DNA of 63,098 nt, counting the filler. It is 12 parts of 12 records of this genome, joined end to end, with 100 filler letters (N's around TTAATTAATTAA, not from the genome) between each part and the next. Parts side by side here need not be neighbours in the genome. Positions count along the whole stretch, not along the records: positions 49,284 to 53,151 come from SRR7504441_8799; 11 more parts are not named here. One strand, 5' to 3'. The position numbers and the translations under genes are program-made. Below, piece by piece: positions 219 through 60,045 of the stretch. Each line of letters opens with the position of its first letter. Positions within the stretch are counted from its first letter, which is position 1. Under the pieces are notes generated by a model. It made no database searches, was not told the origin of the DNA, and saw only the letters and a list, made by a program, of their open reading frames with translations.

Positions 219-1905
219 TCACTTTGACCGAGTAGGAAAGATCCGTCCATGTGCAGTGAACGGGATGAAAGTCGGAAGCCGAACACCTTCGACCTCCTCC
301 ATAGTGCTCGCGTTGAGCACGTGCATATAAGACACCTTTTCCTCACCATGCAGCGCAGCAAAAAAGACCCAACCATCCTCCTCGCGCTCACCAGCCCCCA
401 GAAAAGCAGGCTCGGAGGGGAACACATTGTTCCGATGCCATTTCCTCACCGTGCCTTCGCAAAGATCATATCTCACGATCGCCTGGCTGCCCATCTCCAG
501 GCCGTTGTGCCATTGTTCATTAGCATAGAAGATACAGTATTCAAGCCCATTTCTAGCGGGATTGATGACTGGAAATTCGGTGTACTGCGGGGCATGTGTG
601 ATATTGCGAATGAAATGCTGGCCTCGAAGAGGGCCTGCCATGTGCAAAACTACTCGGTAGACTTGTGCACGTGCGGTGCTTGAGTCACGGGCGGTCTTAT
701 TGCGACGATTGGCCAGGTCCTGGAGCGGGTCGGCGAACGGCAGATCTGGGTAGCTGCAGACGTCAAAGGTGATGGCGGTGGCGTTTTCGAATGTATTGAC
801 AATGTGGACGCTCCAGAGGGGTTTGTCAAGGTAGAAGAAGGTCGTACTTGAGCCATCGAGAGGCACCACCGCAATGCTTGATGCTAGAGGGTCCGAGGTG
901 AAAGGCTTGATGGCTTGGGACATGGTTCCCTTGTGCAGATCTCTCAGTCCTAGCGCCATGCTCACTGGCTGGAACACCAGCACCGCGTGCTTCTTGGTCA
1001 GTCCAAAGGCGTGAGTGTATGGCACATAGCCAGCAGGCAGTGCAATCGCCTGGAAGCTCGTGCGCTGGTGAGGGTTTGCCGCGCTGATCTTATAAAAGTG
1101 CAACTTGCCAGTACCAGCCACCGCAGGACTGGCTGTAGCAATCCCAATGAAAGTGTTCGGATCGTCGATCAATGGAACAGTGTGGGCTGCCCCCATCGCC
1201 AGCATCTGACCTGAGCATATTTACTTCAACCCGTGTATGGAAGCAGTTGGGCTCACCTAGGGGGACGTTGATGTCATCTTTATCCCAGACCCACTTTTGC
1301 ACCTGGTTGGAAGCAGATCCAGGCTGGTACTCAAGCACAACTGCGCTGTCTGTAGTGAGAAAGAATCGATCGCCGATGTTGACGGCCAGCACGTAGTCGT
1401 TATCGTTGGTTGCGCTCGGGTGGCAGAGTGGCTTCAAGAGCGGGCATTTGGGCCTTGGCGGCCTGGTGTCCTCGAACAGCAAGCCTGGCGCCACTACACC
1501 CGATGCCACTGACTGGTTGAACCAGCCGCTGCTCATCATCTCACCCGAGAGGCACACTTTCCTGTCCAGAAACGAGAACTTATACAACTGCACACACAGC
1601 GATCGGCGGTGAGCCCCGGGGCTGCGGACCTTCCCGAAGCCGTCTAGAAGCATGGAAAAATTGTAACCATTGAAGTCGAACATGCCCACCCCTTGGAGCA
1701 AATACTCGCCACGCATCGAGGCCGGGAGGTCCGGGCTATCGATGCACAGAGCGAAGGGGTCGGGGTTGCTGGTGAAGAGCAGCTCGTAGCCGATATCTGT
1801 CGGCACCGGGGTGTGCTGATGTGGTCCGTCAGCCGCTGGCCAGCCGCCGAGCACCGGCGCCGCGGTCAAGAGGGCAACAGCGGCAGCTAGCGCGGGGAGC
1901 TGCAT
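219..1905 (-). CDS. Carotenoid cleavage oxygenase / RPE65-family protein with signal peptide; introns 1588-1629 and 1211-1256
   Basis: LLDGFGK, FPVIN and FPSEPAF..EEDGWV motifs. Four Fe-ligand His candidates (AAH, YTH, SVH, TAHG). GT-AG introns join ORFs 1090..2121 and 219..1205. Hydrophobic N-terminus MQLPALAAAVALLTAAPVLGG. Confidence 0.88.
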
Positions 1906-1963
1906 CGCCGCAATCGCACCGAGAGATCGTTCAGTTCCGTTGGTGAAGAAGTTCCCCAGATCC

Positions 1964-4900
1964 ATGTCTATTACCCGAGTAGTCTGGGCTCTGGCCCAGC
2001 TAGCTGTGCTGTCGAGCAGGCTGGCGGCGGGCGAGCTGTCTGCCCGGACGGTCCCGATGCAGGCCCCGTCCACCTTCACCGGTGCCCCGCCGCCCCCGCC
2101 ACCCCCAGCCGGCTGCTGCAACCCCGCCCCTGCTCACCTGGGTTACAGGTCAGTTCAACGACCCTGAGACCTCGACCGAGCATCCGCTGCTGCGGGTGCA
2201 CGTCAACGGCACGCTGTACAACATGCCCGCGTACGAGCCCGCCGGGATCGAGCCCAACCTGGACCAGACCGGCCCAGTGTCCGGGCAGCTGGTTCACCAC
2301 GTTGACTTGGCCACCGGCGAGCCGAGCAAGGGGTGCGAGAGCGCGGCCGGGCGGTACAACTACACCGAGAAGGTGGTGCTGGTGATCCGGGGCGATTGCC
2401 ACTTTGTGGCCAAGATCCGGAACATTCAGGCCGGCGGGGCGGCGGCGGTGATTGTTTACGACAACAAGCCGGAGGGCTGGGTGCACATGGCCTGGGACAA
2501 CACGATCCAGCCGGAGGTGCCGGCGGTGTTCATCCAGTACAACGAGGCGATGCACCTGCTGCACTACATGGGCATGGACAAAAACACCACAAACGGGTTT
2601 GAAGCCACGCTGCTCCCAGACAATGAGAACAGCCTGAGGTTCAGAGTCGACACGGTGGCCGCCCTCCCGAGCAACCCGGCGGTGCAGACAGTGACCGGCA
2701 CCGTCGAGGGCCGCCGCACCGTCGAGGGGCACATGGGCACTGATTACATGAAATACTCAGTCAGTGGCACCTTTGACACTCACACTGGCCGGCTTGTGGT
2801 GCAGCCTTTCCAGTGGATCACCAAGCCAGAGGACGATGATATATCCTGGATGGGGCTGGAGGGCACCGTGCTGCCGGAGGGGCACGCCATCCAGGGCAAG
2901 ATGACCCCTTACGAGGCTTACTTCCATATGCGGCTGGCCAACCCGTCTGACTGCCCGCCCAGCGTGGCCCAAGTGGCGCAGTGCCAGACAACCGGCGAGA
3001 ACGGCTACTGTGGGCAGGGCTGCCTCGAGGTGACGGACGAGAACGGGTACCGGGTGTTCAACGACGACAACTGCGAGTTCTCCCAGCCGCTAATGCATTA
3101 CTGCTCGATCAATGCACGAATCACCGGCGCTGAGTCCGACGACAGCACCTTCTCGTGCGAGGGAGAGCGTCTGGTGCTCAAGCCGCCGCTGGTGTCGCAG
3201 GCCAACGTCTGTCCGGCTGGCCAGTCCCAGAATTATCCATTTTTCACCGAGTGGCCGGTGGCTCGCTTCTTCCAGCCCTACGATTGGGACAAGATGACGG
3301 CCGGTGCGCCGGAGCACGGGAGCTTCTCAACCTACCTGTGCCGGACGGCCGACTGCGCCAACGCCACCGACAAGGAGTACGGCAAGGGCTGGCGGATGCG
3401 CGGCGGTTATGCTGACTCTGGCCCAACCAGACTGCCCAACTCGCAGTCAGTACTCGAGTACCACGTGCCGCACGTGAAGGCAGGCGCTGAGGTGCTGTTC
3501 ACGTACATCTCCAACGGCGAGCTCGGGTACGATTACCTCGAGTTCGAGGTGTGCCTCGAGGGGCGGGGCTGCACCACAGTTGAGAACTACAAGTACGACG
3601 ACGAGGCAAGCTGGCGGCGGGTAAAGGTGCGGCTGCAACAGGACGGAGAGTACTACCTCAAGTGGAAGTACATCAAGGATCAGGCGGTGGACGGCCGGAT
3701 GGATGAGGCCCGGCTGCTCCAGGTCGCTATCACTGGGTTCGACGACGATGCAGGCTGCAGGGCGTGCCCTGCAGATCATTGCTCCACAGGCAGAATCGAT
3801 GGATGCCAGAAGTGTTCGACTGGGACTAACTCCGCAGCGGGCTCACCCACCTGCACGGCCTGCCCCGGCGACCGGCCGATGAACTCTCACTACCAGATGT
3901 CCAACGAGCTCTCAAACTCTCCAACCGGGCAGAACTGTGCTGTGTTCTGTGACCCAGGGTACCAGGAGCATGGGTTCAACCAGGCCACCCTCCAGTGCAT
4001 CCCCCGACCGGACACCTGCCTGCTGCCCAAGGAGTCCTCATACGGCGGCAAGTTCGACCCACCGAGCATGAGCATGCTCAGGCAATGCTTCCAATTGAGG
4101 CACCCGATGCGCGACTACTGCGAGGACGCGCTCGAAACGCTCGAGGTCATCAATAAGATGAAGCAGCTGGACTCGCAGGTGCCGCTGCCCCGGCTGATCT
4201 GACCATTGCTGCAGAGCGCTTCTCGTGTCAAATTCTACCAAGATATTCACGAGCTGTATGAGACGCTCGAGGCTGCCAACAAGGCGGGCGACTGCACCAC
4301 AGTGTTCAAGACCGACTACGACTTCCATCAACGGATCCTCTCCCTGCTCCGTGCGACTCCGGACTCGAGCTACATCTACACCCCGCCGCTGTTCTATCAG
4401 AACCTGTTCCTGTACCTGCCAGTCCGCTTCAGGTACACTGGCAACCGTCAATCCGGTATCACAATCTTCATTGATTCGCTCACCGAGATGAGCCGCAAGT
4501 ATGGCAACCGTGGCTGGACACCGCACGTGCCAGTGATGGATTATGAAGTAGTCAAAGTCGACGGCGTCCCTGCCGGCCAAGCGTTTACTGCATTTGCTGA
4601 CTCACAGGTCGGCTACTCGCCAAATGCAAATGCTCGACTGGAGTTGGCTGTTCGTGGCGACTACCCTCAGCTCTGGGCGTGCTCCTTTAGCACCCGCAAC
4701 CTGGGCAAGTGCGGAGGAGACATATCAGATACTATGAAGCTGACGATCCGGAAAGATGGGAGCAGCCCGGAAATGGATGTGGTGTTCAAGTGGACTGTGA
4801 TGTACTTTGGAGAGGACTGCGACACTGCTGCTCCGTTGCACGAGACTGAGATGGATTCTGGGTCGTGCTCATACCACGAGCCTCACGACTGGCTCAACTG

Positions 4901-7577: not shown

Positions 7578-7677
7578 NNNNNNNNNNNNNNNNNNNNNNN
7601 NNNNNNNNNNNNNNNNNNNNNTTAATTAATTAANNNNNNNNNNNNNNNNNNNNNNNNNNNNNNNNNNNNNNNNNNNN
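7578..7677. other. Artificial contig linker N44-TTAATTAATTAA-N44 (also 17580-17679, 23997-24096, 28845-28944, 32801-32900, 39300-39399, 44531-44630, 49184-49283, 53152-53251, 56566-56665, 59939-60038)
   Basis: Identical 100-nt spacer with stops in all six frames, present 11 times; genes are truncated at it. Confidence 0.98.
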
Positions 7678-16772: not shown

Positions 16773-17679
16773 CTTTAGGTGTGAATCGTATGCAAGAACC
16801 AATCACTCTACAAGATTTCACTCAGTCAGTGTAACCACACCTTTGCACTCGATTTAGGATCCTGATCAAAATTTCAATGGATGTGCCATCATCTATAGTG
16901 TGGCTAAACAGGCTCGCAATTGCAAGACTCGCTGCCGCGCTACTTATTTTAATTAAAACAGAAATACCAAGCTTATAAAATTATACTCGTACGAGGAGCT
17001 GATCGGATTACAATCGTTAAGACAATTGGTGACTATGCGTAGAAACTTTATGATGAGAGTGGAGTTGGGAGAAAAGAGTAACAAACTCTATTCCGGCTAC
17101 CGGTAGCTAGTAATAGTTACAATATCGATAATAACTATTGTATGTCATGAGATGGTTCCCAGATACGGGCGCCGAGGCCAGGTGAACGGCCAGGATGGTG
17201 TACTGCCGCGTTGCAGCTTCTAGCGCTCCCTTCGGTTCGCTGCGTGGACCATGATGAACGAGGTGCGCACCATAAAGATGTGATGAGCTCTGACTTCTGC
17301 GCAGGCCGTCCTGCAGCTGGTCGTCGCGCACGTCGGCCCTGGTACCGGTAGCAACGATGGAGCTCTCAGGGAGGAAGCTCGGATCGTTTACAAGGGACTG
17401 TGGTGCGTGTGCCGTGACTTCCGGCGCTGGATCAGCTCGGCCTGCACCTGGCTCGCATGGCCCGGAAGGCCCGGTGCCTATCCAACCGTGCTGCAAAAGT
17501 CCACCACTGATCAGCATGGGCACAGACAACCGTCTCGGGGAGAAAGGAGGGTTTGCGGCGCTGGAGCCTGCACTGAGGCNNNNNNNNNNNNNNNNNNNNN
17601 NNNNNNNNNNNNNNNNNNNNNNNTTAATTAATTAANNNNNNNNNNNNNNNNNNNNNNNNNNNNNNNNNNNNNNNNNNNN

Positions 17680-23996: not shown

Positions 23997-24096
23997 NNNN
24001 NNNNNNNNNNNNNNNNNNNNNNNNNNNNNNNNNNNNNNNNTTAATTAATTAANNNNNNNNNNNNNNNNNNNNNNNNNNNNNNNNNNNNNNNNNNNN

Positions 24097-28844: not shown

Positions 28845-28944
28845 NNNNNNNNNNNNNNNNNNNNNNNNNNNNNNNNNNNNNNNNNNNNTTAATTAATTAA
28901 NNNNNNNNNNNNNNNNNNNNNNNNNNNNNNNNNNNNNNNNNNNN

Positions 28945-32800: not shown

Positions 32801-32920
32801 NNNNNNNNNNNNNNNNNNNNNNNNNNNNNNNNNNNNNNNNNNNNTTAATTAATTAANNNNNNNNNNNNNNNNNNNNNNNNNNNNNNNNNNNNNNNNNNNN
32901 GTGCTCAGCCTGCCCTCAGC

Positions 32921-39110: not shown

Positions 39111-39496
39111 CGCCCGAGCACGCGGGGCACTCTCTCGACGAGCACGGGAGCGCACGTGGCGCTCGTTTAAGTCTTTCCGTTACTAGGTGGTGGTGAGAGA
39201 TATGAGAGACGGGGACCCAGGCATCACGATGAGCGAGCCCCACAGTCAGCATGCTCTCCTCCTGCGTCCGCTTCCTGGTCCTGGTGCCGCTCCGACCCGN
39301 NNNNNNNNNNNNNNNNNNNNNNNNNNNNNNNNNNNNNNNNNNNTTAATTAATTAANNNNNNNNNNNNNNNNNNNNNNNNNNNNNNNNNNNNNNNNNNNNT
39401 ACTTTATTCATAGCTAATATAGATTGACTTTTTAATTACCCACACTATCGATTCTTTTCCTTCATCACTCCTTCATCATGACAGTGCAATCATGTG

Positions 39497-44406: not shown

Positions 44407-44780
44407 GCCTTAACAGCCCATATGTACTGCTCGTACTCGTACTTATACTCTATGCCATTTGCATACGTTGTATTTAGGATGAAATCCTAATACCCTCGCA
44501 CTTTAGGCTTGAGGGGCGCTAACGGTGTTANNNNNNNNNNNNNNNNNNNNNNNNNNNNNNNNNNNNNNNNNNNNTTAATTAATTAANNNNNNNNNNNNNN
44601 NNNNNNNNNNNNNNNNNNNNNNNNNNNNNNACTTGAACTAGGATCGTGCGATGCTGCCTTCAATTTGGTACTTCTTGGCATGTGTGTATCGCATGTGCTG
44701 AAGATAGCGTTATCTGAAAGTTACACATTCTGATTGCTCATCCATGCCAGTATTGTGAACCCTGTTTCTGTGTCTTAATC

Positions 44781-49183: not shown

Positions 49184-49283
49184 NNNNNNNNNNNNNNNNN
49201 NNNNNNNNNNNNNNNNNNNNNNNNNNNTTAATTAATTAANNNNNNNNNNNNNNNNNNNNNNNNNNNNNNNNNNNNNNNNNNNN

Positions 49284-49965
49284 GGGGGGGGGGGCTGGCG
49301 GGGGAGCATGCTTCAACGGATGGCCAAGGGAAGCCTCCAGCTCTGCCGAGGCGGGTGCGACCCCGCCACCCGGAAGCAACTGTGCAAGACACCAACCGTC
49401 CTCCCGCTCCCCGCGGGGCCCCGGGCGCTCGTTGGGGTCAAGTCGCGGCTCATGTCGGTGGGCTGTCCGTTAATGTCCGTTGGATCACCTGCTGACGGCA
49501 GGCCACTGGGAGCAGCCCCTACCAAGAGCAGCTGGAGGTGCGGGTGGGCAACGGCGGCCGCTGGTGCGACCGCGAGCAACAGCCGGGTGGGTCCGTTGGT
49601 GTCCGTTGGCTGACTCCCGTCCAGGCTGGGTGGGTCACGGCTTCTTGCCCCGCCGCGACTGGATCGGGCGAGTCACGCCGGCGTCTAGCATGTGCGCTCC
49701 GGTGCACGAGCACACAAGGCCTATAGTCTACCATAAGGCGTGTGGGGCGCCCCCGCAAGTGGCTTTCACCTCCACCCCACCTCGCCGGCCGGGCTCGGCC
49801 CCGGTGAGTCGGGCGGTGCTGCGGGAGCGCCAGCTGCTGGCCGAGTCGGGGCCTGTCGAGATCGAGCCTGATCCGCAGTCGCAGTCGTCCCAGTTTAGCT
49901 GGGCGCGGCTCGATTACTTCAGAGGCTGGGCTGACGTGGATAGCGTGGATAAATACTTGCACTGA
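49284..49965 (+). CDS. 3' part of a hypothetical protein; two introns with CCGTT repeats (49442-49501, 49587-49624)
   Basis: Splicing gives one frame ending WARLDYFRGWADVDSVDKYLH*. Confidence 0.4.
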
Positions 49966-50108
49966 CGCGTATATGTACCCCCGCCGCTACATGCATACTA
50001 GACATAATCAATTCGTCAGTACTCCTGACCACAGTACTAGTACTCGGCGTCAGTGCTGACTCTATTTTGGTCCGCGGTGAGCCATAACGGCAAAGGAGGC
50101 GCAGCGGA

Positions 50109-52897
50109 ATGCCTGCGGGCTGGCACACGTACAGCTGGGGCTCGGTGTCCAACGGCACCCTAGGGTACGACGACCTGCCGTTATCGACCCCGGAGCCTGA
50201 CCGGCGCCAGCCTCACCCGCGCGAGGTGCCCGGGCTGCGCGGCACCGCCATCACGCTCATTACTTCCTCTGAGCACTTTTCGCTGGCCGCCTCCAGCGAC
50301 GGCGCCCTGTACTCATGGGGCTATGCCGACTTTGGGCGGCTGGGGCACGGGAATATGCCGTTACCGGTCGAGGGCGAGTCGCCTGCCGGGCCGTACTTGC
50401 TCGCCCCGGACGGAATCTCGCCCTGGATCCCATCCCCGAAGAGGGTGATGGCGCTGGCCGGCCAGGCTGTGATATCCATCTCCTGCGGGCTCGAGCACGC
50501 CCTGGCGGCCACCCGGGAGGGCCGGCTCTACTCGTGGGGCGGAGCTATTTACGGGCGGCTCGGGCACCAGGATGGCGTGATAGATCAGCTGCCGATTGAC
50601 GAGGAGGGCGGCTCGTGCGTAACGGACGGCCCAACGGAGAGCGAGCGGAGGGCAGGTACTTGCCGACCCCGCGGGTGGTGGACGCGCTGCTGGGTAAGGC
50701 GGTGGTTGCGGTTGCCTGTGGCGAGGTTCATTCGCTGGCAATCGCTGAAGGTGCCGCCGGAATATTATTATTACTGATTACTGTTTATCAATGAGGGCTC
50801 ACCGGGTGGGGGCAGGGAAAGTATACTGCTGGGGCTGCGCGTCGTACGGCCGGCTCGGACTGCCGACCGACCGACTGATCACGCTGCCACGTGACGAGGA
50901 CGACGAGCAGGTGGTTGCCTAATTAGGCAGGTGTGACGTCCCGCAGTTTGCGCCTACGCCGATGGAGATTCCGTCGCTAACGGATATAATGCACATAGGG
51001 TCAGGGATTCTGCACTCTCTGGCGGTGTGCAAAGCCGGCAAGGTATCTGCGCGCGGCTGTCGGCGGTGTGCAAACCCGGCCAGGTATTTGCGTGGGGCTG
51101 TGCTTCGTTTGGGTGTCTGGGACTCGGAGGTGAGCCCATAGCACACATGGAGAAATATGAGGACGACGAGGTCCCAACGGCATTTAACGGCATTCTAACG
51201 GACGTGTGGGGGGCAGAGTGGGCCGTACCAGCCGACGCCGATGCAGGTGACGGCGCTCGAAGGCGAGTTTGTGGTCGCGGTCGAGTGTGACGAGGTGTTG
51301 CCTAATAAGGAAGCTGTGACGTCCCGCAGGTCCACTCATTGGCACTCACTAAGCAAGGAGCGGTATTCGCATGGGGATGGTGCACCCCCCGGCCAGCCCC
51401 CTCTGAGCCAGCCGCAGCGCTAGCTACGGGAGACTTGGTCTTTCCCAAACAGCTGACTGTAGCGGCCTCGCGAGCTCGGAACTAGGAAGCTTCGAACCGG
51501 CGCCGCGACGGGTGCCGGGCCTAACGGACATCCAGGCGGCTTCACTGGCCGGTTGGTGGGTGACGGCTGGTCTAGGCAATTGTGTGTGGGCGGGCGCACT
51601 CGCTGGCGCTGACTAGAAGCGGGTCTGTGTACGCTTGGGGGTCTGCGGATCACGGGAGGCTTGGCATCGAGTCCCAACTGTATTCTAACGGCATTTTAAC
51701 GGTAATGTGGCAGGTCGAGCCCACCGGACGAGCCGGAGGCATCGCTCCAGCCTAGCCCGGCCCTGGTCTCCTGCCTGGACGGTGAGGGCTTGTTTTATAA
51801 ATATATTCCGTTATAGAGTTGGTTGGTAGGTGGTGTGGTGACGGTGATCGGGTGTGGGTACCGGCAGTCATTTGCAGTGCAGAGAGTCGGGTGGGTCGGG
51901 TGGCTGCGGCCGCTGAGCAGGTGGCAGCTCGGAACTGGAGACGCATCTCGGCGGGTTGATTAATGCACCAGAGTTTGCGGATGTGGCGTTTGTTTTCGAG
52001 GGCGGGTCCAAGGTGCTCGCACATAGGTGCATCTTGGCCGCTCGGGCACAATACTTTGCCAAGGTGAGCACATGCTGTAATTGTTATGTATAGTACTCGT
52101 TATATGCTGCTAGTATCCGAGCTTGGCGGTTGGTGTAGTGTTTCAGCTCGTAGCACTGTGCTGCTGCCAGTAGTATATGGTACTAGCATTTGGGGGCGCA
52201 GTGTTTCAGCTCGGCGATGCTCGAAGGGAGCAGCACAGGCCCGGTGATCGAGCTTCAGATTGCCGTTAAATGCCGTTAGGTGCTCGAGCTTCAGATCGCG
52301 GAGGCGGCTGAGACGGATATGCGAAGGCTGCTTCACTGGCTGTACACGGGGGAGGTGGCACCAGGACAGGGTCGGAGCGATGATGAGAGTGACAGGTGAG
52401 CCTAAGTGAGGAGCCGGAGGCGGCGACGGAGCAAGCGCTGAGCCTACTCCGTCTGGCGGACAGGTCACACCTTCTCGATTAGGAGATGGCATAGCTTAAC
52501 ACCTTCCTGATTAGGGAATGAGCTGTGACCGGTCGCAGGTTTGTGATTGTGCAGCTCAAGCACCAGCTCACGCCGCTGCTCACCGGCCAGCTGAGCGTAA
52601 CCAACGTCCTCACCGTCCTGCAGGTGCCCCAGCCGCATCCCAACCGCCATCCAACGCGTGTGTACACAGGCCGCCGACCATTTCAACGCTGCCCAGTGCC
52701 GCCGGGCTGCCATCGACTTCATTCTGGTCCATTTTCAACAAGTCAAGAAAGCCACCCAGTGCTTCGTCCAGCTGGCCCGATCCCCCGAATGCGCGCACTT
52801 GCTCTCGGAAATATTCCGGCCGTTAGAGTCGCCGCTCCAGAGCCGGGCGGCCGCGCACGACCAGGCGGCGCTCAGTGTGCCGCCTGGGCACGTATAG
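50109..52897 (+). CDS. RCC1-repeat + BTB/POZ(-BACK) protein, about 15 introns
   Basis: Repeats LYSWGYADFGRLG, ISCGLEHALA, ACGEVHSLA, VFAWGCASFGCLG; BTB LAHRCILAARAQYF..FSSAMLE..LLHWLYTG..LLRLADRF. Confidence 0.88.
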
Positions 52898-53484
52898 CCC
52901 GGCTGGTTGCTGTCCGAGAGGTTTCACAGATAAATGCGCAGCTAAATTATAGTAAGCGACTCGTAAGCGACTCGTGCGATCCAAACAAAGCATGAATGGG
53001 GCTCGGGTTGCGCTTCCATTCTAGCTACACTCGTCTGTACGGTACCTGATTTATTAGTCGAATTTCATATTAATTAAGCACTTACACACGGATGTATACC
53101 ATCGCTAGCAAGTGAGTAGGCATGTTTATTGAGTCTTCATGTCTACCCGACNNNNNNNNNNNNNNNNNNNNNNNNNNNNNNNNNNNNNNNNNNNNTTAAT
53201 TAATTAANNNNNNNNNNNNNNNNNNNNNNNNNNNNNNNNNNNNNNNNNNNNCCATTTTCCGGACCAGACCGTATGCTGACGACCAGACCGGGACCAGACC
53301 GAGCCCACCCGCGGCCGACGGAGGGCTCGGCAGGGCCGGGGCGCGGCTGGGCTGGTGCCGGATGGGCCGCCGCACCACCCCTAGCCAGCTCCACCTCCCC
53401 GGAACCCACGTTCCGCCGCCTTCTCCATCTCCGCTTGAGAGCACCGCCATCGTCGCTTTCTCAACCCCGCTTATTTTTACTTTG

Positions 53485-56410: not shown

Positions 56411-56859
56411 CGCCTGCCGCCCGGCAATCACCCGGGCGAGATGCAGCCAGCCAGCCGCCGTTGCCTGCAGACTGGTCCGGTCCGGCAGGCCGGACCGTCC
56501 GGTCCACCCCCCCTGGATCACTGTCGTGATCCACTGTACTGTGTACTATATAGAGGCCTTTTCCGNNNNNNNNNNNNNNNNNNNNNNNNNNNNNNNNNNN
56601 NNNNNNNNNTTAATTAATTAANNNNNNNNNNNNNNNNNNNNNNNNNNNNNNNNNNNNNNNNNNNNAGTTCTCGTGATCGCCGTACAGCGGGGGCCGACTC
56701 AGAAACTGCTCGGCCGGCGCTTGCGGCCCCAGACCGGCCCAGAGCATCGCCCCCGTCAGATTGCTTGATCTACATGTATCGCCCGCCGCCCCTCACCCCT
56801 CAAGTGTTGCCATGATCAGCCTCGGGAGCAGGCACGCGTACGTTAGAGCAAAGGCGGCG

Positions 56860-59713: not shown

Positions 59714-60045
59714 GGCTCAGTTTAACGGCATCCAACAGTCGCATCTGCAGAATGTGGGTCGTGGGTATACCATCCCTCAATCGACTCTTATACTGATGGA
59801 CCGTTATATCAACTGCACATCTGACTCACCAACTGTATCTGTCGATACCACCATGTCCTGAGTCTAGCACACGAATATTACACGAATGTAGTCTAAAATA
59901 GCAAGTTATGATACACTCATGATAACATGACAAGTGTANNNNNNNNNNNNNNNNNNNNNNNNNNNNNNNNNNNNNNNNNNNNTTAATTAATTAANNNNNN
60001 NNNNNNNNNNNNNNNNNNNNNNNNNNNNNNNNNNNNNNCTCACCC

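Follow-up and report, generated by a model that had tools for sequence, protein, structure and literature searches.

An introner-like family of AACGG-repeat mini-introns built on a variable tandem array

How new spliceosomal introns originate is a long-standing question, to which introners are the best-supported answer, and the described forms of these are transposons with defined ends. The 63,098-base stretch of DNA analyzed here (the window) raises the question in a specific form. The AACGG-repeat introns considered here sit on one of its joined contigs, the 3.9-kb segment at 49284-53151, where a gene for a protein with RCC1 repeats and a BTB domain carries two such mini-introns at non-homologous sites. 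The first-pass annotation saw in these a very small, intron-generating repeat of about 45 nucleotides (nt). Our verdict is instead an introner-like, insertion-generated family whose body is a variable, satellite-like array with long and variable target duplications, and not a fixed 45-nt transposon: the number of units, the heads, the tails, and the length of the duplication all vary, and no inverted termini were seen.

The focal introns and their relatives on one contig

Introns were modeled with a purpose-written protein-to-genome spliced aligner, with homologues as guides. The two focal introns, A1 and A2, were placed as follows.

51171..51216, plus strand: focal intron A1, 46 nt, phase 0
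51671..51713, plus strand: focal intron A2, 43 nt, phase 2

A1 consists of a GTCCCAAC head, the sense units CAACGGCATT, TAACGGCATTC, and TAACGGACG, and a G-rich tail ending in CAG. A2 has the same head, three sense units of 11 nt, and a TGTGGCAG tail, so that the two have a common layout of GTCCCAAC head, three YAACGG units of 10 to 11 nt, and a TGTGG...CAG tail. They are identical at 36 of 46 positions (78%), which ranks second among the 153 intron pairs on the contig; the median pair reaches 52%, and among 3060 shuffled pairs the best reaches 71%. Judged by these comparisons, A1 and A2 are clearly homologous. The annotation is borne out in this respect, as both sequences are found where it had placed them and their identity lies above that of every shuffled pair, although its description of the introns as near-identical is too strong for a value of 78%. 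A1 and A2 lie 16 and 2 residues past the G-LG motif of RCC1 blades 5 and 7, respectively. As their phases and their positions within the blade both differ, duplication of RCC1 blades did not give rise to them, and the phases and motif offsets agree with what had been proposed on this point.

Across the A1 site, the closest homologue of the host protein, P0001, runs uninterrupted (KYEDDE-SGPYQPTP). For A2, the first choice of the aligner was an in-frame alternative, 51702-51750, in which the AACGG units are coding. This alternative was set aside in favor of 51671-51713, which gives the better alignment with two of three homologues (175 versus 158 for P0002, 122 versus 104 for P0004, and 174 versus 178 for P0001) and restores an acidic loop that is present in other blades. 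With these boundaries, the coding segment has a guanine-plus-cytosine (GC) content of 0.72 and a third-codon-position GC content (GC3) of 0.83, and the intron is AT-rich (GC 0.40). On the strength of the alignments and the composition, 51671-51713 is accepted here as the preferred, not proven, extent of A2.

The window contains eight matches to the paired motif AACGGN{3,12}AACGG, whereas 100 dinucleotide-preserving shuffles gave 0.57 on average and 3 at most. Seven of the eight matches fall within 49467-52277, on the one contig. Neither the single unit with mismatches (30 matches versus 33 expected) nor the GTCCCAAC head (42 versus 47 expected) is enriched in the window. As enrichment is confined to paired, exact AACGG and is lost in the loosened forms, the signal therefore lies in the paired, exact form. 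Unit pairs are present in 6 of the 18 homologue-verified introns on the contig, three in sense (50615-50655, 51171-51216, and 51671-51713) and three in antisense (49458-49501, 49587-49624, and 52244-52279), and colinearity with homologues supports the assignment of all six as introns that are probably spliced. The four members other than A1 and A2 are listed together with a further intron of the host gene that bears on their origin.

49458..49501, plus strand: intron 1 of the upstream gene, antisense units TCCGTTAATG and TCCGTTGG, CTGAC near the 3' end
49587..49624, plus strand: intron 2 of the upstream gene, phase 1, two antisense units, CTGAC before CAG
50615..50655, plus strand: weaker member, two sense units of a GC-richer AACGGA variant (TAACGGAC, CAACGGAG)
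51043-51083 within 51021..51101, plus strand: filler-less duplication intron, 41-nt tandem duplication, 2.0 copies, 87%
52244..52279, plus strand: duplication-plus-array intron, 36 nt, comprising 21 nt copied from the start of the downstream exon and 15 nt of antisense array (CGTTAAATGCCGTTA)

Spliced alignment and the positions of the motif agree with the annotation of related unit pairs in 50615-50655, which is 67% identical to 51171-51216, and, inverted, in 49587-49624 and 52244-52279. The intron that had been placed at 49442-49501 is real, but its start is probably 49458: two of three homologues (P0043 and P0044) give 49458-49501, and the third (P0042) gives 49475-49512. Its neighbor, 49587-49624, is recovered with all three homologues and is 70% identical to 49458-49501, which makes this the third-ranked pair. 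The top-ranked pair belongs to another family, "family B" (50911-50946 and 51295-51329, 89% identical). Both antisense introns of the upstream gene have their own CTGAC before the acceptor, and the units there are therefore likely to be passengers and not the source of splice signals. A minus-strand reading of this region, in which the units would be in sense, was rejected, as homologues exist for the plus-strand product and spliced alignment likewise places the gene on that strand.

Duplications remain visible at two of the listed introns. In the case of 52244-52279, a direct repeat (52243-52263 and 52279-52299) is identical at 19 of 21 positions with an offset equal to the exact length of the intron, and it scores 16 against a control maximum of 5. 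This intron ends with an in-frame TAG, its 12 codons are missing from P0001, and its region has an inverted match of 30 nt (87%) to 51167-51196. In the case of 51043-51083, which is required by the P0001 alignment, an AGGT-containing exon segment of 40 to 41 nt is duplicated across 51021-51101 with no inserted filler (score 27.5, control maximum 5).

Arrays, splice signals, and insertion signatures in metagenome contigs

Two public collections, viral_contigs and metagenome_contigs, were scanned for a two-unit pattern present in three window introns. The former gave 44 loci with one two-unit match each, judged to be at about chance level, and none with the three matches of the window. The latter gave 108 loci, 37 of which are whole short contigs (1.0 to 3.0 kb, mean GC 0.53) of eukaryote-like character that belong to three record series, with prefixes Ga0114995, Ga0115001, and Ga0114998. 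Runs of at least three units are present on 34 of these 37 contigs, versus 5 of the 71 other loci; the remaining loci among the 71, single matches on assorted low-GC or long contigs, look like chance. A three-unit pattern was found in 12 of the 108 metagenome loci and gave no match in the prokaryote genome_contigs or in viral_contigs, a stringent 24-base pattern gave no match in genome_contigs, and in a BLAST comparison of the window contig with all metagenome loci the arrays were the only match.

On this distribution, the AACGG unit belongs to a repeat that is dispersed in at least one eukaryote, and its presence on many unrelated metagenome contigs, where further copies were looked for, agrees with the intron-generating repeat of the first-pass annotation. 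The common unit and the similar style of the introns suggest that the array-bearing contigs come from the same lineage as the window contig or from a related one. On the window contig, 6 of 18 introns carry the unit, and arrays are found on 34 of 37 contigs of the three series, which may derive from more than one genome.

By Tandem Repeats Finder, the 27 richest contigs (40.9 kb) have a period peak at 10 to 11 nt and hold 99 arrays of period 9 to 12, often several per contig and on both DNA strands. The unit, 10 to 11 nt long, is roughly CATT(T/C)TAACGG, and consensus units include CATTTTAACGG, GCCATTTTAAC, and ATTCTAACGGC, the last being the variant of the window, along with more distant ones. 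Across the family, arrays range from 2 to more than 10 units in introns of 36 to 141 nt with variable heads, and the metagenome array introns are of GT-AG type and 46 to 141 nt long. At the listed heads, GT precedes the first unit by 3 to 10 bases and in some cases falls within a GGTATTT variant of the unit, and one variant unit, AACGGTATTT, includes a GT donor. At the other end, junctions such as AACGGCATTTCAG|G or TTTTAG|G are one change away from a unit.

Splice-site motifs are distributed around the arrays with a clear polarity. AGGT occurs within 30 nt upstream of 27 of 59 arrays read in sense versus 5 of 59 read in antisense (8.5% with random placement), YAGG within 30 nt downstream of 25 versus 9 of 59 (15% with random placement), and both together in 10 versus 0 of 59 (0.9%). 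These counts strongly indicate that the metagenome arrays lie in small GT-AG introns and that nearly all of them are in sense there, reading AACG. The proposed capacity to work in both orientations is consequently seen for the short copies in the window, three in sense and three in antisense, but not for the metagenome arrays, among which sense dominates. The sense unit contains TTAAC or CTAAC with a run of T before it, and both fit the generic branch-site consensus, pyrimidine-U-any-A-pyrimidine. We infer that the array may be a stack of cassettes, each with a branch site and a pyrimidine tract, which would supply the branch site of the intron.

For every array, the two 40-nt flanks were compared with each other, with the 99th percentile of mismatched flank pairs as the threshold, and duplications above this threshold were found for 24 of 86 testable arrays. 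The duplicated flanks are unique, non-array sequence of 9 to 47 nt, their copies differ at 0 to 20% of positions, and the array alone separates the two copies; examples are duplications of 25 nt at L138, 19 nt at L061, 23 nt at L072, 26 nt at L110, and 37 nt at L125. In a test of splice geometry, a GT...AG was sought inside the repeat at a length equal to the copy-to-copy offset, such that the array and one copy are removed. This geometry is present in 11 of 22 listed pairs and, among the 13 that score at least 15, in 10, against a chance rate of about 20% by our own estimate (about 25 positions, two strands, 1/256 each). One locus stands twice in the list, as L050 and L124, which are reverse complements of each other. 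Five more of the 22 pairs allow GC-AG only. Of the GT-AG pairs, the six with at least three units all have a splice solution on the AACG-reading strand, on which stop-free frames extend for 15 to 74 codons on each side of the restored junction. The hallmarks of insertion, a target duplication and splice sites that remove the insert together with one copy, are therefore found for metagenome arrays and for 52244-52279 and not for A1 and A2. As such, the expectation of target duplications that came with the introner-like reading holds for the 24 arrays and for 52244-52279 but not for the two focal introns.

At L096 (704-867) and L110 (351-564), the order is flank-array-flank-array-flank, with three copies of the flank and two arrays. 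This repetition shows that newly made introns were later amplified in tandem.

Proposed origin and rival explanations

Placing these results in the context of known systems provides additional insight. Introners, known from Micromonas, Aureococcus, dinoflagellates, fungi, and others, are made by insertion with target duplication and recruit one or both splice sites from that duplication; known families are discrete elements with target duplications of 3 to 9 bp, and many have terminal inverted repeats (excerpts of PMC9860276). Some families are ascribed to "unknown molecular mechanisms" (excerpts of PMC12130899), and the lengths cited are 64 bp, 134 bp, and ~210 bp (excerpts of PMC12130899 and PMC9481584), with ~210 bp being characteristic of pelagophyte introners (excerpts of PMC9481584). 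The AACGG introns resemble introners in that those of the window contig are similar in sequence at unrelated positions and in that part of the family shows hallmarks of insertion, with splice sites recruited from the target duplication. Unlike introners, their body is a variable tandem array of 10- to 11-nt units, the introns can be as short as 36 to 46 nt, inverted termini were not observed, and the duplications vary in length from 9 to 47 nt. Such long and variable duplications disfavor cut-and-paste transposases, given the 3 to 9 bp of known introners (excerpts of PMC9860276).

Three other routes to new introns, as presented in excerpts of PMC3443670, are each matched in part. Intron 51043-51083 is exactly a tandem genomic duplication, in which a 41-nt duplication provides two AGGT copies as donor and acceptor, and the duplicated flank likewise supplies AG|GT in many array introns; unlike this route, most AACGG members hold a foreign, recurrent array between the copies, and A1 and A2 fail the duplication test. 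Repair of staggered double-strand breaks, as in Daphnia, is associated there with repeats described as "short," whereas the repeats here are up to 47 nt long and a single recurring repeat family, not miscellaneous DNA, forms the filler. Reverse-splicing transposition, as in Oikopleura and Mycosphaerella, gives look-alike introns at non-homologous sites of one gene, as observed here, but it would act in sense only and without target duplication, unlike the antisense copies and duplications of the AACGG family. Overall, the family acts like introners, does not qualify as a discrete transposon, and brings together features of insertion, tandem duplication, and break repair. A literature search found no description of an array-type introner family; supplementary introner catalogues were outside its scope, and a prior description is possible.

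Tail-only (5'-truncated) insertions of retroelements that lack long terminal repeats or are Penelope-like have variable length, variable and sometimes long duplications, and tails that are often short tandem repeats. The AACGG arrays differ from these in that neither a reverse transcriptase nor an element body turned up beside any of them; a Pfam scan of 50 open reading frames from array contigs returned no reverse-transcriptase family and no marker gene.

One metagenome contig, L130, carries a gene for a hAT-type transposase with a BED finger and a dimerization domain (789-3153, minus strand), with about 260 nt of CCGTTAAA- and CCGATAAAT-type arrays on one side of it (1-265) and, on the opposite side, a 14-nt repeat of another sequence. 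Miniature hAT elements have 8-bp target duplications and short terminal inverted repeats. A hAT-derived miniature element was considered as the source of the family and rejected, as the duplications vary from 9 to 47 nt with no 8-bp pattern, the flank listings contain no inverted termini, and the two flanks at L130 differ. The core of the unit presumably resembles hexamers bound by some hAT transposases and by Myb-type domains, which we take as a lead only.

On balance, we favor the reading that A1 and A2 are short, fairly old members of a dispersed, array-type family of mini-introns made by insertion. A piece of array would be inserted into exon DNA at a staggered break, giving rise to a target duplication of 9 to 47 nt. 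The insert would persist if AG|GT lies in the duplication or at the array junction, and splicing would then remove exactly one copy along with the insert and restore the reading frame. One base change at the array end would be enough to create a TTTCAG or TTTTAG acceptor, and a unit in sense would supply the branch-site-like TTAAC or CTAAC with a short pyrimidine run. The filler may be optional, such that the same break process without an array would leave a pure tandem-duplication intron. As to the agent, our leading guess is that array RNA or DNA is copied at paired nicks, by target-primed reverse transcription or by templated insertion in repair or replication; processes with two independent nicks, such as target-primed reverse transcription and fill-in or templated insertion, give variable and long duplications. 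A1 and A2, which have no surviving duplication, may have arisen by the same insertion route.

More tentatively, and as a possibility that we would not yet call probable, these elements could be regarded as "satellite introners," in which the mobile unit is a tandem array of helical period (10 to 11 nt), each unit being a ready branch site and pyrimidine run. Such arrays would be copied into exons at paired nicks, with duplications of 9 to 47 nt supplying AG|GT and with tandem-duplication introns as the filler-less version, in a marine eukaryote lineage whose genes are packed with introns of 35 to 140 nt, 16 of them in one 2.8-kb gene. If true, this would be a previously undescribed class and among the smallest insertion-made introns known. 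The AACGG insert is in effect a minimal splicing cassette in tandem, and a single gene holds introns of insertion type next to introns of pure tandem-duplication type. Confirmation would trace two proposed routes of intron gain, one by transposon-like insertion and the other by tandem duplication or break repair, to one underlying lesion, and very short introns with still-visible duplications would form a system for dating gains and seeking empty sites.

A number of observations weigh against an insertion-generated family. No significant flank duplication is present at 62 of the 86 arrays, and 6 of the 22 duplication pairs have no splice-compatible GT/GC-AG. Among the 16 introns of the RCC1-BTB gene, two (52244-52279 and 51043-51083) are positive in the exact-offset duplication test, in which A1 scores 2 (control maximum 5) and A2 scores 3 (control maximum 5.5); these two introns have either lost their duplications to decay or originated in some other way. 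We found no enzyme encoded by the element, nor any terminal inverted repeats or duplications of fixed length. The support for splicing comes entirely from protein colinearity. The unit is homogeneous within arrays and differs between them, which also fits local slippage. The metagenome sample was picked by the unit pattern, and its array density is biased upward as a result. Finally, the window contig was not found in the scanned collections, and no gene ties it to the array-bearing contigs. A direct repeat at the ends of A2 (TCGAGTCCCA and TCGAGCCCA) was also considered and discarded, as its offset of 47 to 48 nt is unequal to the 43 nt of the intron and the exact-offset score is 3.

It could be argued that no insertion is needed and that slippage amplified a branch-site and pyrimidine segment in place, within existing introns, the likeness of A1 and A2 being convergent or a matter of very distant homology. 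The internal homogeneity of the arrays and their difference by locus (CATTTTAACGG, GCCATTTTAAC, TTAACGCTGA, TGTTTAATACG, and others) would follow readily from such expansion, a splicing constraint would be in keeping with the sense bias and with a core that resembles a branch site, and both the 62 arrays with no detectable flank duplication and the internal duplications that also enlarge introns of the window contig are in line with it. We nevertheless regard in-place expansion as unlikely, as it fails to account for letters that carry no splicing signal yet are conserved on dozens of contigs (CGG.CA), for the antisense copies in three of the verified introns of the window, and for the 24 arrays that lie between duplicated, unique exon sequence; moreover, the identical GTCCCAAC head and the similar tail of A1 and A2 are not signal consensus, and the head is not enriched window-wide.

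A purely local process, in which reverse splicing, gene conversion, or repair copied introns within the gene and its neighbor and the likeness to metagenome arrays is incidental, has a smaller chance still of being correct. In Oikopleura and Mycosphaerella, within-gene homologous introns have been interpreted as products of intron transposition (excerpts of PMC3443670), a single 3.9-kb contig holds seven of the eight motif pairs of the 63-kb window, and further look-alike pairs exist in the family B introns of the same gene (89%) and in the upstream gene (70%). This concentration says little, however, as the other 11 segments need not come from the same organism, and the unit, including its CTAACGGCATT variant, forms arrays on 34 unrelated contigs. 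Reverse splicing in particular predicts copies in sense only and no target duplication, whereas three antisense copies and one 21-nt duplication are seen. That the likeness is merely due to chance among short AT-rich introns, or to mis-modeled introns, is hardly credible: the introns are just 43 to 46 nt long and A2 has an in-frame alternative model, but the shuffle controls, the colinearity with homologues, and the single open frame of 660 codons after splicing all contradict it.

Host genes and further features

The contig is an intron-dense eukaryotic fragment within a linker-joined record, and prokaryote-style gene calling there will be wrong. Its two genes are as follows.

49308-49965, plus strand: upstream gene for a conserved protein, no Pfam match; three homologues, best E 1.9e-17
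50109..52899, plus strand: RCC1-repeat and BTB gene, host of the focal introns, 660 codons, 16 mini-introns

In comparison with Pfam, the exon translations of 50109..52899 match RCC1 (E 2.4e-24) and BTB (E 1.1e-05). A database search with exon 1 identified P0001, of 626 amino acids, as the closest RCC1-BTB homologue (74% identical over exon 1), along with further, more distant RCC1-BTB proteins; a protein-atlas look-up gave only generic RCBTB-like clusters. The coding sequence of P0001 fits within its 2181-nt source contig, genomic or cDNA, and is therefore essentially intron-free there; if that contig is genomic, the absence of nearly all 16 introns from it would imply recent mass gain. Guided by P0001, the alignment of the RCC1-BTB gene contains 16 introns of 35 to 138 nt, 15 of them GT-AG and one GC-AG (51536-51575). 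With intron 51671-51713, the spliced coding sequence has 660 codons and one stop, which is terminal. The coding sequence has a GC content of 0.64 and a GC3 of 0.76, and the introns total 806 nt with a GC content of 0.56. An Emiliania-type genome was considered and dropped, as 1 of 18 introns is GC-AG here versus about 60% GC-AG donors there (excerpts of PMC4028052). For the Parmales, a further lead, the text of the genome paper makes no mention of introns.

The window as a whole joins 12 separate contigs by 11 identical linkers (N44, a 12-base all-frame-stop spacer, and N44). The GC content of the 12 segments ranges from 0.47 to 0.73, and a common organism is therefore not required for them.

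7578-7677: linker
17580-17679: linker
23997-24096: linker
28845-28944: linker
32801-32900: linker
39300-39399: linker
44531-44630: linker
49184-49283: linker
53152-53251: linker
56566-56665: linker
59939-60038: linker

The metagenome contigs with AACGG arrays contain other dispersed repeats as well. One of these, an element of about 45 nt that starts with GATTATTACCATATATGGAC, occurs in both orientations and is flanked by direct repeats of about 9 to 19 nt, as judged by eye; insertion with long duplication is therefore not specific to AACGG arrays. Its copies are listed here.

L049 354-397: ~45-nt GATTATTACCATATATGGAC element
L054 21-64: ~45-nt GATTATTACCATATATGGAC element
L070 91-131: ~45-nt GATTATTACCATATATGGAC element
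L102 567-611 and 1023-1068: ~45-nt GATTATTACCATATATGGAC element
L104 1106-1146: ~45-nt GATTATTACCATATATGGAC element
L143 939-1046: ~45-nt GATTATTACCATATATGGAC element
L148 652-695: ~45-nt GATTATTACCATATATGGAC element
L149 1321-1355: ~45-nt GATTATTACCATATATGGAC element

A dispersed tandem repeat of about 32 nt containing GGGGTTGGGGTT is found at L061 343-412, L102 15-93, L116 2-53 and 996-1028, and L053 1137-1189.

The two family B introns also lie at non-homologous sites, both in phase 0, and have a perfect palindrome of 14 nt (TGCCTAATTAGGCA in the first copy) and a common GTGACGTCCCGCAG end; no copies of them were found in the metagenome loci outside the window contig. A 75-nt intron, 52464-52538, starts with GTCACAC and ends with CTGTGACCGGTCGCAG; within it are two B-like segments, one inverted and one direct, as well as an internal tandem duplication of 32 nt. 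The end of the upstream gene lies about 145 nt before the start codon of the RCC1-BTB gene, a compact spacing. Intron 51536-51575 is the sole one that needs a GC donor, as the GT alternatives would give the wrong frame or an intron of 16 nt. The longest intron, 52064-52201 (138 nt), holds a 19-nt copy of its acceptor and the exon start 63 nt upstream of the acceptor (GGTGTAGTGTTTCAGCTCG versus GGCGCAGTGTTTCAGCTCG), which suggests a nested insertion or a duplication at the 3' splice site.

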